A stretch of 55,271 bases of DNA, from positions 1 through 55,271 of the forward strand of contig CALVUL010000020.1 in the NCBI GenBank assembly GCA_944363555.1, given 5' to 3'. The DNA comes from an uncultured Clostridia bacterium (GTDB lineage Bacteria > Bacillota > Clostridia > Christensenellales > Borkfalkiaceae). Under the pieces are notes generated by a model that was not told the DNA's origin, searched no databases, and worked only from the letters and a program-made list of their open reading frames with translations. Position numbers and translations under genes: made by a program. Positions 19,577 to 24,312 of the stretch are shown here, piece after piece. How positions within the stretch are numbered: the first letter of the stretch is position 1; each line of letters begins with the position of its first letter.

Positions 19577-19639
19577 GATGAGTTCCTTTTTTATTTTTCG
19601 GGAACGGCTTTCCGCCGTTCCCGAAAACAAATTGCTTTT

Positions 19640-21553
19640 TTAAGAGAGCTTATAGCCTGCAAGATACATCGTAAACGGATCGGAACCGTCTCCGCCGCCA
19701 CCGCCTTCCACGTGCGCCAACGTTACAACGTATATCCTCTCCATATTCTCCGCGACCATCTCTTCTTCGATCGCGCTCCACTTTTCCGGAGTGATGGAAA
19801 TTTCCGCAAATTTCTCGCCGGAAACTATACTTACATGAGCGACTTTATTGCCGACGTACGTTTTGTGATCGCCGTCCACGTTCCCGAGTTTGAATACCAA
19901 GGTAAGGGTTTTTCCTTCATCTATGAACGCTTTCACCATGTCCTTGTTCAGTTCGATGCGCGGATACGCGCCCTCACTATCCATGCGGAGCATGCTCGTT
20001 CCCCTGTACTCTTCCGATACGGGCGCCGTATACTCGTTTATGGCTTGAATCAGCTTTCCTTCTCCGTACCAGTCTTCCACGCTGTCGAACACCTCGTCCA
20101 GCACCTTAACGCTGCCTTTTACCGTGGAATCCTCATATCCTTCGATGGATTGCACGCACTCGAACGTATAGTCGCCGTATTCCGTAAAGGTATAACTTTC
20201 CGCGCCCTCGTCGGTAACGGGTTCGCCGTCCTTATATACGGTGAAGGATTTCAGCGTCGCGTTTGTACCGAGCAGGTCCGCCGCGGAAAGCGTTTCGCCT
20301 TTTTCGACGGTCATATCTTTCGCCGCGCCGCGCACGTTATCGAGATAATATTCCAAATTGGATTCACAAATTGCACCGTCGTTTAAAACACAGAACATTA
20401 AATCATTCCCCGAATCAACGATGGATTTTAAAATTTCGCCATCTACCGTGATCGTTACACCGGTTTTCGGTGCAAGATTTTCGTAGTAATTCTGGGTTCC
20501 GCCGTTGAGATACGATGACCAATAACCGTTATGCGCAAGCGAGCCGTTGTTGTAAAGATCGAAGGAAATCCCGCCGTACGCGTTGTAGAAATCGGTCAAT
20601 ACCGAATTTTTGATGATGATGTGCGGATAACCCGAGCCTTCCGCATTGCGGTACAGACCTTGTTTGCCGTCCGTACAGCCTGCCGCGAGGTTGCCGACTT
20701 TCAGATAATCCCATGCGCCGTCCTTAGAGGCGAACAGCGTTTTATCATAAATCGAGCCGACTTCTTCCTCTTCAAAACTATAGAACAGTTTTTTCACCGC
20801 GTTAACGGTAACGGCAACGCTGTCCGTTCTGCTGCCCAGCGCGGCGGTGATGTTCGCCGTGCCCGTGCCGACGGCGCGCACCACGCCGTTTTCATCCACC
20901 GTGGCGATTTCGTCGTTATCGGAAGAGAATTTTACAACAAGCCCTTCCGCGCCCTCTGCCGCAAGCGTTTTTTCATCGCCGACGTTCAGTGCAAAATCTT
21001 CCCCCAACGAGATCGCCGGAACCGCCTTATCCACGATGGAGGTATAGACGGGATCTTCCTGCCCTGCCGCCAGCGCCGCGCTGGCAACATACGCCACCGA
21101 ACGCGTTTGCGGATTGGAAACGTAGGTCTTTACCCCGTCCACCGCGTAATACGCCTTGGCGGTGAGCTTTGTAAGATACTGCGTACCGGGGATGTTGGTG
21201 AGCACCGCCTTGAAACACTTCACCGTTTCGGTGCTCTCTTCCGCCCATACGGTCTGCGGAATATCGAGGGGTTCAACATCTTCCCTGCCCGCGGGTACGA
21301 TCTCCGTGCCGAAGGTGATTTCGGCTTCGGGATTTGCTTCTTCAAGCCCGTCGATGAACGCCTGATCCACCTTGGTGATAAAGCGCAGCCCGCTCGGTTC
21401 TTCCAGCCGGATCTCCGCGCCCGTTTCCATGGCGAACGTGCCGGCGTTTTCCTGTGCCCTGACCGGCAGATTGACCGCCGCCAGAACGCCGAGGCTCACC
21501 GTCAGAGCCGCGGCAAACAACCCGTAAAATACATTCTTCAATCTTTTCGTCAT
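19640..21553 (-). CDS. Secreted Big_2 (Ig-like) protein carrying two CBM-like modules
   Basis: SPase-I signal MTKRLKNVFYGLFAAALTVSLGVLAAVNLPVRA-QE. Big_2 signature IATVDENGVVRAVGTGTANITAA. Start moved to ATG 21553; the 39-aa Arg/Gly-rich extension in the track is not credible. Confidence 0.7.
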   Translation of the reverse strand: MTKRLKNVFYGLFAAALTVSLGVLAAVNLPVRAQENAGTFAMETGAEIRLEEPSGLRFITKVDQAFIDGLEEANPEAEITFGTEIVPAGREDVEPLDIPQTVWAEESTETVKCFKAVLTNIPGTQYLTKLTAKAYYAVDGVKTYVSNPQTRSVAYVASAALAAGQEDPVYTSIVDKAVPAISLGEDFALNVGDEKTLAAEGAEGLVVKFSSDNDEIATVDENGVVRAVGTGTANITAALGSRTDSVAVTVNAVKKLFYSFEEEEVGSIYDKTLFASKDGAWDYLKVGNLAAGCTDGKQGLYRNAEGSGYPHIIIKNSVLTDFYNAYGGISFDLYNNGSLAHNGYWSSYLNGGTQNYYENLAPKTGVTITVDGEILKSIVDSGNDLMFCVLNDGAICESNLEYYLDNVRGAAKDMTVEKGETLSAADLLGTNATLKSFTVYKDGEPVTDEGAESYTFTEYGDYTFECVQSIEGYEDSTVKGSVKVLDEVFDSVEDWYGEGKLIQAINEYTAPVSEEYRGTSMLRMDSEGAYPRIELNKDMVKAFIDEGKTLTLVFKLGNVDGDHKTYVGNKVAHVSIVSGEKFAEISITPEKWSAIEEEMVAENMERIYVVTLAHVEGGGGGDGSDPFTMYLAGYKLS

Positions 21554-21555
21554 GA

Positions 21556-21684
21556 TCAGTTCCCCCATTCCTCCGGCCATTCGCCGAAGTCCTCGTCTGC
21601 CGTCGTCGCCACGGAGTTTAAAACCGCGTCGTTTGTGCCGAACAGCAGAATTTCCGCCGTCGGCTGCCAATACTTTTTCTTCAT
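21556..21684 (-). CDS. Unannotated 42-aa ORF: MKKKYWQPTAEILLFGTNDAVLNSVATTADEDFGEWPEEWGN
   Basis: Hand translation of the minus strand. ATG 21684 lies 6-7 nt after AAAGGAGGAG. The TGA at 21558-21556 ends 2 nt before the ATG of the next gene. It is too short for the supplied ORF track. Confidence 0.5.
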   Translation of the reverse strand: MKKKYWQPTAEILLFGTNDAVLNSVATTADEDFGEWPEEWGN

Positions 21685-21792
21685 TTTTCTCCTCCTTTAT
21701 TTTTTTCCCGCAGTGCGGGAGGATGCCGTGTTTTTAAACGGCTTTTTTTCCGCCCGCTTCCGCAGGCGGAAAAGGTTGCCGTTTCTGCCGTT

Positions 21793-24312
21793 TTACAGCG
21801 CGCCGCGCACGTTGTCGATATAATAGCGGAACGCCGCGTTTTCATAAGCGGGGGTGCCACCCTCGTTCATGATCTGGAACATCATATCCTCGCCGGAAGA
21901 CAGGATCGCCGCAAGCTGTTCGGCGGTCAGGCTGACTGTCGTCCGCGACGCGGGCGCAAGGCTCTGCCGCACGTATTCGCCACCCGCCTCGATATAACTG
22001 TCGTGCTGTTTCGCGCCGGCGTTATACACGTCGAAATGCATTTCGCCGCAGAAGTAGTAGAAATCGCGCACCACCGACCTTGCGACGACGAAGTAGGGAT
22101 ACCCGTCGTTCACGCCGTCGAAATTAAACGTAAGGCTCTGCGTTCCCTCGCTCGTGCCGGCAGCGTCCGTGGAGACGAGAACGCTCGTTTTCCTGCAGTC
22201 CCCGCCGAACAGACCGCCGCCGTAGGCGCTCCCCGCGGTCTCCTCTTCAAAGCCGTAGAAGGGGGTATAATCTTCGCGCACGACGAGTTTCGCCGTAAAC
22301 ACGCCCTCCGCATAGAACGCTTTATTCACGGTGAGCTGCGCCGTATATTCGCCCGCCGGCAGGGTGATCGCGCCGCCCTGCGCCGCGCCGGTTACTTCCG
22401 CGCCGTCCGCGCCGAAAATCTTCAGCGCGTATTCTTCTTCGAGCAGCCCGCCGAACACGTAGGCGAGGTCGAAGGCTTTATTTGCCGGCACGTTCACGTC
22501 GGTATACGCGCCGCGGAAATCGTCGAAGAGGAAGAACCCGTCCTCCGCCTTACCCGAAGCGGAATTGTCGTTGAACAGCACGATGTGCAGATCGTAAGCC
22601 GCCTCGACATAGGTTTGCAGTTCGTGGCTGTAAATAACGAGTTCCGCCGTCTGCCCCGCGCCGAGCACATAGCGGCGGAGCGCGCCGCGCGTGGGCGTTT
22701 CGATATAGAACTGGTGTTCGAACTGCCCGCCGTTATAGATCTTGAAGGTGAAATAATCGTAGTAATCGACAAACTGCGCGAGATAATCGATGTCGATGGC
22801 AAGCCCGGGCCAGCCGTTCGACGTTGTATAACTGCCGATGAGGGCGTTTTTCCCTTCGGGAGCGAAGGAAGAATCGCCGCGCTTGATCGTCGCGCCGTCC
22901 ATGCCGGCATACACGGAAAGATCCGTATCGCCTTCAAAGTTCTCGTTTAAGGACATCTGCCTGCCGCGCACGTCGAAATCGAAGGCGGCAAAGCCGTCCG
23001 CGCCGAAGAGCACGCGCACCTGATACGCGCCGGCTTTCTGCGGGATGAAGGAATCGGCGGCAACGCCGTCTTCCGTCTTCACGCCGTCGCAGTACACTTC
23101 AAAACCGGTGTAGGTCTTGCCGGCGAGTTTTTCTACGTTCTGATAAATCGGAGCGACGGCAATTTCGTCCCCCGTATAGGCGACGGCTGTATCGGCGAAC
23201 CTGCCGCTGATCTTTTCAAAGTACAGCGAAAGCATTTCGTTGTTGCCGTCCGCGGGGTCGTTCATCGTAACGAGGGTGATGTCGTTGCCCCTTTCCAGAC
23301 TCCACTGAATGCTTTCCGCGGTAAATTCGATCTCGCCTCTGCCGCCCGCGGGAATGGTGAACCGGCTGTACGCCGCGTTCTTGGTATATCCGCCGTTTTC
23401 GTCGAGTTCGCCCGCCGTCTGATAATAGATCTGGTGCGCGTGCGCGCCGGCGTTGTATACCGTCAGAAGAACTTTATCGTAGATTGCCGTATACGTTTCG
23501 AAGAATTCTGCGGAAAAGCGGATGTTCGGCCAGTAATTGCCGTTGGTGTTCGCCTGAATGGAAACGCTTTCCCCCTCGACGTGCGGCAGAAGAGTAACCT
23601 GTCCGTCGGGGCTGTAAATCAGCGAAGGATCGTATCCGGAAGAGAAATCTTCGACCACGTCCGTCAGCACCTCGGGATCCTTTTCGCCGTAAGCGAAGAG
23701 GATGGCGCTGTTGCCGCCCGTGTTGCCGAGGGCGTCCTCCGCCTCGATCTCGATGCGGTAGAACCCGATTTCTTCGGGCGTGAATTTGTTGGTTTCCGCG
23801 TTCACGCTTATTCCCGTTTCGCCGTTTTTATAATGGGCGGTGATGCGGGTTTCCGCAATGGGGGAATAATCCTGCACCACGTATTCGGGAAGATCGGCTT
23901 CCTCGCCCACCGGCACGCGCACGCTCGTTTCCCTGAAATAGACGGTCGGGGCGATGGTGTCGGTTACCTTGACGGTGGTCGTTACGCTGTGTTCCTCCCC
24001 CGCGACGGTGGCGGTGTAGGTGATCACGTACCCGTCGATGGAAGTTACCGGCAGCCTGCCGCGGGAAACTTCCACCACGCTGTCGCCCTGCTTCACGGTG
24101 TAGGCGGCGGGGTATTCCTTGCCCTCGCTGTCGACGGCGAGCACGTCCGGAATATAATACTCCGAACCGAGTTCCACCGTAACCTCGTCGATGACGGAAA
24201 ATTCTTTCAACGTGATCTTCCCGTCGTCGTTGCAGGCGGCGAGCCCCGCTGCGGCGGCGATCGCCGCGGCGACGCACAGCGCGATCAAAGCGCGCTTAGT
24301 CTGTTTTTTCAT
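21793..24312 (-). CDS. Surface lipoprotein: Ig-like (DUF5011-type) region plus three CBM-like modules
   Basis: Lipobox MKKQTKRALIALCVAAAIAAAAGLAAC. DTIAPTV-type Ig segment. Three modules each show the FE/FS start, an xVYN/IYN core, and a DNVRG / DDFRG / FEKISG end. No catalytic motif recognised. Confidence 0.7.
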   Translation of the reverse strand: MKKQTKRALIALCVAAAIAAAAGLAACNDDGKITLKEFSVIDEVTVELGSEYYIPDVLAVDSEGKEYPAAYTVKQGDSVVEVSRGRLPVTSIDGYVITYTATVAGEEHSVTTTVKVTDTIAPTVYFRETSVRVPVGEEADLPEYVVQDYSPIAETRITAHYKNGETGISVNAETNKFTPEEIGFYRIEIEAEDALGNTGGNSAILFAYGEKDPEVLTDVVEDFSSGYDPSLIYSPDGQVTLLPHVEGESVSIQANTNGNYWPNIRFSAEFFETYTAIYDKVLLTVYNAGAHAHQIYYQTAGELDENGGYTKNAAYSRFTIPAGGRGEIEFTAESIQWSLERGNDITLVTMNDPADGNNEMLSLYFEKISGRFADTAVAYTGDEIAVAPIYQNVEKLAGKTYTGFEVYCDGVKTEDGVAADSFIPQKAGAYQVRVLFGADGFAAFDFDVRGRQMSLNENFEGDTDLSVYAGMDGATIKRGDSSFAPEGKNALIGSYTTSNGWPGLAIDIDYLAQFVDYYDYFTFKIYNGGQFEHQFYIETPTRGALRRYVLGAGQTAELVIYSHELQTYVEAAYDLHIVLFNDNSASGKAEDGFFLFDDFRGAYTDVNVPANKAFDLAYVFGGLLEEEYALKIFGADGAEVTGAAQGGAITLPAGEYTAQLTVNKAFYAEGVFTAKLVVREDYTPFYGFEEETAGSAYGGGLFGGDCRKTSVLVSTDAAGTSEGTQSLTFNFDGVNDGYPYFVVARSVVRDFYYFCGEMHFDVYNAGAKQHDSYIEAGGEYVRQSLAPASRTTVSLTAEQLAAILSSGEDMMFQIMNEGGTPAYENAAFRYYIDNVRGAL

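Follow-up and report, generated by a model that had tools for sequence, protein, structure and literature searches.

The locus described here raises the question of whether a gene lies hidden in the space upstream of a surface-protein gene in a glycan-utilization operon and, if so, what its product does. The stretch of DNA that was analyzed (the window) comprises 55,271 nucleotides (nt) from an uncultured Clostridia bacterium of the Borkfalkiaceae (assembly GCA_944363555.1, contig CALVUL010000020.1, positions 1 to 55,271). On its minus strand, the gene of an 839-amino-acid (aa) lipoprotein ends at 21793, and the gene of a 637-aa secreted protein with a Big_2 domain starts with the ATG at 21553. 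A preliminary description, made from the sequence alone, had claimed a gap of 239 nt between the two, and we obtained the same distance. It had also read by hand an open reading frame (ORF) of 42 codons in this gap. We report that this ORF is almost certainly a protein-coding gene under selection, as judged from its comparison across lineages. Taken as a whole, we read the locus as a coupled cassette whose peptide would be functional in its own right, probably acting in trans as a partner to the constant module of the surface protein; we hold this reading with slightly less than even confidence.

The ORF (21556 to 21684, minus strand), as established by sequence reading and comparative data, starts with the ATG at 21684-21682 and stops with the TGA at 21558-21556. 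Its product, MKKKYWQPTAEILLFGTNDAVLNSVATTADEDFGEWPEEWGN, is an acidic peptide of 42 aa with a mass of 4803 Da (approximately 4.8 kDa) and an isoelectric point of 4.1; it contains eight Asp/Glu and three Trp residues and no Cys, and its tryptic fragment is YWQPTAEILLFGTNDAVLNSVATTADEDFGEWPEEWGN. When the sequence was re-read, frame and composition agreed with the preliminary description, as did its statement that the hydrophobic stretch falls short of the length of a signal peptide: the maximum Kyte-Doolittle mean over nine residues is 1.27, and the longest stretch without a charge is ILLFGTN. AlphaFold2 gave a predicted local distance difference test score (pLDDT) of 61.6 and no stable fold, and the isolated peptide is predicted to be disordered. 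The identical 42-aa sequence is present on 41 contigs; carriers of the ORF include GCA_964312325.1, GCA_964324845.1, and metagenome-assembled genomes with contigs QAKE01000052.1 and CALVZR010000087.1. The ORF had been called hidden, which is true of the ORF track that was then supplied, but gene callers already report the 42-aa product in many public assemblies. Functional genes escape ORF tracks that apply length cut-offs, and this ORF is an example.

By itself, an ORF of 42 codons is not beyond chance, since 84 ORFs of at least 30 aa overlap the surrounding 10 kb of this DNA (56% GC). Its significance therefore rests on conservation. Loci were collected via homologues of the 637-aa neighbor protein, and the closest ones fall into five lineages (the window type; L001; L007/L015; L008/L014/L017; L016). 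In every fetched locus of these five lineages, the ORF has exactly 42 codons and occupies the same place. Half of the residues (21/42) are invariant, and the peptide is 64-78% identical between lineages, compared with 54-61% for the Big_2 protein, 54-57% for the lipoprotein and 70-80% for the enzymes. According to the Nei-Gojobori method, the proportion of synonymous differences (pS) is 0.42-0.89 versus approximately 0.2 for non-synonymous differences (pN), with synonymous sites near saturation and a dN/dS ratio of 0.10-0.35. Variable sites are distributed over the three codon positions as 18/16/33, and Fisher tests of synonymous versus non-synonymous changes gave p = 1e-3 to 1e-10. Selection on amino acids covers residues 1-36 and is strongest for residues 1-24 and for a [DE]DFGxW motif at positions 31-36. 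The peptide frame is the sole frame open in all five tested lineages; a coding gene on the opposite strand was rejected, as no antisense frame is open across all of them. Including more distant loci, seven lineages carry a relative of 41-47 codons immediately before a homologous surface-protein gene, and in an eighth the relative directly follows such a gene. The preliminary description had proposed to examine whether dN/dS is below 1 and whether frame, ribosome-binding site and junction are conserved, and all of these were found. No homologous locus with a frameshift or stop in this frame, or without the ORF, was seen; such loci had been named there as evidence to the contrary.

We then considered how the ORF is connected to the gene that follows. 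A Shine-Dalgarno (SD) sequence, AAAGGAGGAG (21689 to 21698, minus strand), precedes the ORF and is predicted to form an anti-SD duplex of -11.7 kcal/mol at 5 nt spacing. The spacer of six nt claimed earlier is correct if counted from the GGAGG core; after the 10-mer, only 4 nt remain before the ATG. This SD had been singled out as the best in the locus. It ranks first among the 11 operon genes, but shares this rank with that of the 839-aa lipoprotein gene (-11.8 kcal/mol). The claim of a strong SD as such holds for all eight lineages (8/8), in which comparable sequences of -7.3 to -12.1 kcal/mol are found at a spacing of 5-7 nt; this conservation supports translation of the ORF. At its other end, the ORF runs into the next gene with the sequence TGA-TC-ATG (21551 to 21558, minus strand), in which the peptide stop and the start of the Big_2 protein gene are separated by 2 nt. 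This tightness, noted before for the window, is kept across lineages: the junction measures 1-2 nt in L001, L007, L008 and L016, and is an ATGA overlap in L010, L019 and L024.

The downstream SD was also described as lying within the last codons of the peptide. This is the case for a G-run in codons W40-G41 (21562 to 21566, minus strand; -8.4 kcal/mol), which is located 7 nt before the ATG at 21553, but not for the GGAGGA at 21574-21569, which at 15 nt is too distant. In each lineage, a G-run or GGAGG is found 6-10 nt before the downstream ATG and inside peptide codons. The tails of the peptides differ otherwise, and it is their Trp/Gly codons (WGN, GGGD, TGGN) that spell the downstream SD. 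Therefore, the extreme C-terminus of the peptide seems to be partly under nucleotide-level constraint, an illustration of how the last codons of a peptide can be molded by the ribosome-binding site of the next gene. Rare within-species variants crowd this same end (E38K/G/D, G41E, N42K, and stop-loss alleles with GS or WS appended; P0104-P0114); as the affected codons overlap the SD-like sequences of the downstream gene, these variants may modulate its expression. Judging from the sequence features of the junction, the peptide gene and the Big_2 gene are probably translationally coupled. A fusion with the Big_2 protein by programmed frameshifting or read-through is excluded, because the relative reading frame of the two genes varies among lineages, and no RNA structure masking the downstream start is common to the lineages.

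The downstream gene itself is composed of two parts. Its constant 5' part (20850 to 21553, minus strand), delimited by Pfam and the identity profile, encodes a Sec signal peptide, an N-terminal domain of approximately 165 aa (N-domain) and a Big_2 immunoglobulin-like domain (Pfam Big_2/Big-like at aa 207-252), and is 93-100% identical at the nt level within the species. Pfam returned no family for the isolated N-domain, and tblastn of this domain against plasmids gave no match. The 3' two-thirds (19640 to 20849, minus strand), defined by the identity profile, AlphaFold2 and Foldseek, encode beta-sandwich modules resembling carbohydrate-binding modules (CBMs) and are hypervariable, with 35-80% nt identity between strains whose flanking genes are 98-100% identical. 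Compared with L003, L010, L011 and L013, the 637-aa protein of the window strain is 95, 81, 70 or 64% identical, while the other operon genes are 98-100% identical. In a 60-nt identity profile, identity stays at ~100% over the peptide gene and ~700 nt into the Big_2 gene, and falls to 35-80% between ~20850 and 19640, with sharp edges. The proteins P0048/52/58/62/69 are organized likewise, with near-identical N-terminal ~300 aa and swapped C-termini. A diversity-generating retroelement as the source of this hypervariability was rejected on divergence alone (35-60% nt identity over 1.2 kb, far beyond the mechanism).

The peptide is linked to the constant part of this protein. In L001, the peptide is 76% identical to that of the window, aa 1-181 of the downstream protein are 71% identical, and the remainder is only 23% identical; the upstream protein of L001 has no tblastn-detectable similarity to the lipoprotein of the window. 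The 839-aa lipoprotein is the upstream neighbor in window-type loci, and a tblastn counterpart is absent in L001, L002 and L019. The downstream proteins of L001, L019 and L024 keep the constant part, and their C-terminal parts are 21-23% identical to that of the window. Over all pairs, peptide identity correlates with N-domain identity (Spearman 0.90) more strongly than with that of the C-terminal part (0.45). Sets of enzymes around the two genes vary (GH123/GH36, GH130, GH106). By their synteny, the peptide gene and the Big_2 gene are a conserved two-gene cassette inside glycan-utilization operons.

More distant relatives were found outside the five closest lineages. In L024, a 46-codon ORF with a strong SD, MMTKKAYVPPVAEQTGYTADIIMVSDNLTADKAWSEWTDITGGNAS, overlaps by ATGA the gene of a 580-aa protein (P0071) in a GH106/DUF4838 locus; the N-terminal domain of P0071 is ~30% identical to that of the window. 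A full HMMER search of 1.84 billion representatives returned two further small relatives, and three larger matches were set aside as low-complexity or repeat proteins. The first relative, P0101 (L019), comes from a more distant organism, has 47 aa, and its gene shares an ATGA overlap with that of a 759-aa Big_2 protein in a GH123 ... GH36 locus. The second, P0103 (L018), has 41 aa and its gene follows that of a 588-aa Flg_new surface protein. Downstream of P0103 (L018:9930-10227), a canonical terminator (GGCACCA-loop-TGGTGCC-TTTTTT) is located 10 nt past the stop, followed by the gene of an 85-aa lipoprotein, an attenuator-like arrangement; the layout would suit a trans-acting product encoded last in its operon as well as an attenuator. 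The family can be described by the signature M-(x)-KKxYxxPxAE-x4-[FYL]-x3-D-xx[LM]xS-x6-8-[FW][GS]EW, behind which the tails (5-12 residues) are unrelated, and at long range its most conserved part is the N-terminus (KKxYxxPxAE).

Altogether, among billions of proteins searched with word-based methods and full HMMER, only a handful of small relatives came up, none of them named. Pfam and NCBIfam assigned no family to the peptide (NCBIfam, E <= 1) or its relatives (P0101 and P0103, E <= 0.01), and the peptide profile matched no PDB sequence at E <= 10. A hidden Markov model of the family detected no second copy or paralogue among the six-frame ORFs of the window and 23 loci, and a scan of viral contigs with the profile gave no match. 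A scan of metagenome contigs returned a single near-identical short contig. A short metagenome contig (L006:303-606) follows the window over the peptide gene and the first ~15 codons of the Big_2 gene and then continues with unrelated sequence; it represents a chimeric assembly or else a strain in which another gene lies downstream. As far as sequence searches can tell, the peptide founds an unannotated small-protein family, so far present only in assemblies of uncultured Clostridia/Bacillota. This newness was judged against Pfam, NCBIfam, PDB and named relatives.

Considering these observations, we propose the following mechanism. The strong and well-spaced SD would load ribosomes onto the short ORF. 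These ribosomes would end translation 1-2 nt short of the surface-protein AUG, or in overlap with it, next to the G-run SD in the last Trp/Gly codons, and synthesis of the exported protein would thereby be tied to synthesis of the peptide. The peptide is kept by purifying selection and diverges in step with the ~165-aa N-domain, not with the hypervariable C-terminal part. It could then act in trans and in stoichiometric amounts, as a partner of the constant N-terminal module or in the biogenesis of this module. Probably, it would fold on binding, for instance as a beta-hairpin (AEILLF-GxxD-AVLNS) with an aromatic acidic tail. The role as a trans-acting partner, suggested by the co-divergence and the synteny, is put forward tentatively and with a confidence clearly short of even. 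A small cytoplasmic partner or chaperone, and a peptide signal, had been among the roles suggested earlier; the co-divergence lends some indirect support to the first of these. The peptide is kept even where the adjacent N-domain is down to ~30% identity.

Several points weigh against this proposal. The pairs used for co-divergence are phylogenetically non-independent, and linkage of adjacent DNA alone could yield such values. The downstream protein has a classical Sec signal peptide and thus crosses the membrane unfolded, whereas the peptide has no export signal; a cytoplasmic peptide would therefore meet only the nascent or pre-secretory chain, and an interaction with the folded domain would require an unknown export route. 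In L018, P0103 sits after, not before, the surface-protein gene, and the C-terminal ~150 aa of the 588-aa protein show only a weak match to this domain (16.9 bits; hhalign probability 79%, E = 1.6e-5, 43 columns). Finally, coupling need not be obligatory, since the downstream gene has an SD of its own.

Among the alternatives, a cis-acting arrest leader is unlikely, although it survives best. Here, the nascent chain, perhaps together with a sugar or another metabolite, would stall the ribosome and thereby tune the use of the adjacent AUG or, in L018, read-through of the terminator. The ORF is found immediately before the gene of an exported protein in seven lineages, with its stop upon the next start, and the attenuator-like terminator of L018 follows 10 nt after the stop and precedes a lipoprotein gene. 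Trp, Pro and acidic residues are typical of the arrest sequences of TnaC, SecM and SpeFL, and the conserved C-terminal motif DFGxWP may be compared with them. However, termination-stalling leaders of the TnaC/SpeFL type have a fixed spacing between the sensor residues and the stop codon, and the peptide family does not: [DE]DFGxW is conserved, but the residues after it vary, and the conserved EW lies 5, 6, 9 or 12 residues from the stop, with unrelated tails in between. Natural variants of 44 aa caused by stop loss (5 contigs) and C-terminal substitutions occur, and within-species variants cluster in the last five codons. Moreover, the best-conserved part (KKxYxxPxAE) is N-terminal and would already be beyond the exit tunnel, and no conserved structure sequesters the downstream SD or AUG. 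Monitoring substrates for Sec/YidC are encoded by ORFs of 80-200 aa immediately upstream of a sec or yidC gene and have an N-terminal signal or transmembrane segment and a conserved C-terminal sequence (PMC7897499). The peptide does not fit this description, as it has 42 aa, is followed by a Big_2 surface protein, and contains neither a signal nor a transmembrane segment.

Rather unlikely, too, are two further roles for the peptide. It might be an exported or modified ligand that docks on the constant N-domain, which a family of hypervariable, putatively glycan-binding surface proteins shares, as part of a new two-component surface module or as a glycan-foraging signal; or it might, as a nascent peptide that senses a metabolite, control whether the surface protein is made.

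It is quite unlikely that the peptide is the precursor of an exported or modified peptide, i.e., a lasso-like or radical-SAM peptide made on ribosomes and modified after translation (RiPP) or an AgrD-like pheromone, with maturation and export genes at some other place in the genome; the conserved N-terminal half would serve as its leader and the Trp-rich C-terminal part as its product. The layout is bipartite and similar to that of AgrD or RiPP precursors, with residues 1-24 conserved, residues 25-30 variable and the acidic aromatic tail conserved, and the predicted disorder of the isolated peptide would be compatible with a precursor. AgrD precursors contain a Cys or Ser that starts a five-residue ring with a hydrophobic end, followed by a conserved acidic, Pro-containing tail, and agrB is adjacent. 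In the peptide, Ser24 is invariant, and 4-6 variable residues and an acidic tail that includes Pro37 come after it, but the residues that would form the ring are small and polar instead of hydrophobic. None of the NCBIfam precursor models, those for AgrD (TIGR04223) and lasso leaders included, was matched at E <= 1 (P0101 and P0103: none at E <= 0.01), and no AgrB family was found among the scanned ORFs of the window.

As for lasso peptides, the start Y5-x-x-P8 recalls the YxxPxL leader motif bound by PqqD-like RiPP recognition element (RRE) domains (PMC10368454). In the family, the motif reads Y5-x-x-P8-x-A10, with Ala10 invariant in 7/8 relatives (Ile in P0103). Lasso precursors carry YxxPxL at leader positions -17 to -12, Thr (rarely Ile/Val) at -2, and Gly, Ala, Ser or Cys as core residue 1; an Asp or Glu at core position 7-9 closes the macrolactam, and B (B1/B2) and C genes are adjacent (PMC10368454). 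This register fails for the peptide. It predicts the invariant Leu22 as core residue 1 and places Ala20 at -2, and with Ser24 as core residue 1, Leu22 is at -2; neither choice provides Thr, Ile or Val at this position. Only off-register is the invariant Ser24 combined with an acidic residue 7 positions on (Glu/Asp at position 31; 8/8 relatives), and a Ser1-Glu/Asp8 macrolactam would be possible in principle. The peptide also lacks Cys. Among the ~40 ORFs of the window scanned with Pfam, there is no radical-SAM, lasso B/C, LanM, YcaO, AgrB, PqqD or peptidase-ABC gene, in agreement with the earlier statement that the window contains no maturase gene, and for six other lineages, the precomputed Pfam lists of their loci name no maturation gene within 10 kb. 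With the register failing, no Thr at -2 and no maturase in the window or the listed syntenic loci, the likeness to leaders of Firmicute peptide precursors that had been seen in the start of the peptide was not borne out. Fixed synteny and translational coupling in a catabolic operon are likewise atypical for precursors.

One relative, P0103, lies 5.6 kb from a cluster (L018:131-4203) encoding an ABC exporter, an HprK-like protein (weak ScmC match), a PqqD-family chaperone, an S26 signal-peptidase-like protein and a nucleotidyltransferase (NTP_transf_5). The cluster is a putative peptide-modification ('HPr-rel-A'-like) system; no cyclase is in view, and the contig ends at its left edge. Among the loci compared, no other cluster with a PqqD-type recognition (RRE) gene lies near the peptide or a relative. 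Its proximity to P0103 might favor a precursor, but the cluster is a separate operon, and a fucosidase gene on the opposite strand and an AraC gene lie between the two.

A very improbable alternative is pure coupling, or an mRNA-stabilizing mini-cistron, in which only the act of translation matters and the peptide is a by-product. The junction is tight and conserved, and the tail of the peptide is visibly molded by the downstream SD. In addition, known 5' mRNA stabilizers consist of a 5' hairpin ahead of an A-rich stretch and a strong SD, and the strong SD of the peptide gene behind its own hairpin and A-rich stretch could be seen as analogous. Yet a by-product would drift freely outside the codons that overlap the SD, whereas dN/dS is 0.10-0.35 with synonymous sites saturated, 21/42 residues are invariant in lineages whose neighbors are ~55% identical, and a recognizable motif survives where the N-domain is ~30% identical. 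The earlier suggestion of a mere coupling or regulatory upstream ORF thus leaves the amino-acid-level purifying selection over residues 1-36 unexplained. Finally, a chance ORF in an intergenic spacer, for which only the abundance of similar ORFs in this DNA speaks, is effectively refuted by the comparative data, as frame, length, start, SD and junction are kept in 7-8 lineages with a coding substitution pattern.

The spacer upstream of the ORF contains two RNA elements. A small GC hairpin (TCCCGC-ACT-GCGGGA; 21706 to 21720, minus strand; sequence and RNAfold) is followed by an A-run and lies directly 5' of the SD, and an equivalent CCCG/CGGG hairpin with an A-rich stretch and an SD is found in L001, L007 and L008. 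As no U-tract follows, this hairpin is not a canonical terminator, and we infer a role in RNA processing or stability. The second element is a 12-bp GC-rich intercistronic hairpin 3' of the 839-aa gene (21746 to 21773, minus strand; RNAfold); a comparably strong hairpin is present in L007, and no U-tract follows it on the coding strand. Scans of the spacer revealed neither sigma-70 promoter sites (0) nor a terminator on the coding strand, and Rfam on 21300-22000 returned only chance matches to snoRNAs (E > 0.5). A similar arrangement, in which a GC-rich intercistronic hairpin without a U-tract comes before an A-rich stretch and an SD, is found ahead of the GH123-like gene (~19580-19625) as well as the peptide gene. 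Such hairpins may govern RNA processing or stability and thereby make expression differ from gene to gene within the operon.

The operon on the minus strand encodes, in this order, an AraC regulator, two ABC permeases, a solute-binding protein, a GH123, a 407-aa lipoprotein, the 839-aa lipoprotein, the peptide, the 637-aa Big_2 protein, a GH123-like protein and a GH36. It is flanked by the housekeeping genes tsf, pyrH, frr, uppS, cdsA, dxr and rseP. For the GH123-like gene, the listed start is the TTG at 19630 (789 aa), and an ATG at ~19576 is preceded by AAAAGGAA (771 aa). The TTG start is probably wrong; the 771-aa product is called in all related assemblies.

The AlphaFold2 model of the 637-aa protein (pLDDT 77.8) is an all-beta, multi-domain chain of beta-sandwiches. 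Foldseek matches of this model include Bacteroides SGBP-B, Ruminococcus Sas6, CBM51/ZmpB and GH101, with low TM-scores, as expected with a flexible multi-domain model. The protein had been termed glycan-binding. The fold resemblance to proteins of the SGBP-B, Sas6 and CBM type makes binding of glycans plausible, but support for the term does not go beyond this analogy. According to sequence comparison, the gene of the upstream 839-aa lipoprotein (21793 to 24312, minus strand) contains three copies of a module that is also present in the Big_2 protein: its C-terminal module and aa 209-410 of the Big_2 protein are 34% identical over 211 aa (E = 2e-27). This module of ~140 aa (GYP...YN.G..H...YY.DN.RG) occurs three times in the lipoprotein and twice in the Big_2 protein, belongs to no Pfam family, and is probably a CBM-like beta-sandwich.

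Gram-positive gut bacteria use surface proteins to harvest host and dietary glycans, and the assembly and regulation of these proteins are poorly understood. The peptide gene offers a cheap handle on how strain-variable surface proteins are made, exported and displayed. Small acidic partners encoded upstream of the secreted protein to which they bind are known from type III secretion chaperones and from the Lap helpers of type VIIb LXG toxins. The peptide resembles them in being a small acidic product that is encoded directly 5' of its neighbor, presumably co-expressed with it and tied to a constant N-terminal region, while the C-terminus of the cargo is variable. In contrast, type III chaperones and Lap proteins are helical, comprise 80-150 aa and serve secretion systems that accept complexes, whereas the putative cargo of the peptide, by this analogy, would be exported via Sec, and no such system is found in the locus.

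With arrest leaders such as SecM, MifM, VemP, ApcA/ApdA/ApdP, CliM, TnaC and SpeFL (PMC7897499; PMC13183943), the ORF shares its shortness, its position before an export-related gene, a C-terminal Trp/Pro motif and a stop by the downstream start. Unlike SecM/TnaC-type leaders, it lacks a signal or transmembrane segment, precedes the gene of an export substrate rather than of export machinery, varies in the spacing between motif and stop, and is not followed by an SD-sequestering stem-loop. The leaders of Firmicute lasso and other RRE-dependent RiPPs (PMC10368454) are similar in their M-K-K-x-Y-x-x-P start, a length of ~42 aa, an acidic C-terminal half and disorder. Here, the differences from lasso precursors are the misfit of register and of the residues at -2 and core position 1, Ala10 in place of Leu, the synteny with a catabolic operon, and the lack of nearby B1/B2/C genes.

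A further likeness in kind is to the small-protein families of microbiomes (Sberro et al., bioRxiv 10.1101/494179; GMSC, PMC11364881), which have at most 50 aa, are mainly metagenomic, and carry a coding signature without a domain, name or function. Nothing yet indicates an unprecedented mechanism; the genomic partner, however, is unusually specific for a microprotein family. What distinguishes the peptide from typical families of these catalogues is this very specific and conserved partner, together with a 3' end that doubles as the ribosome-binding site of the partner gene.

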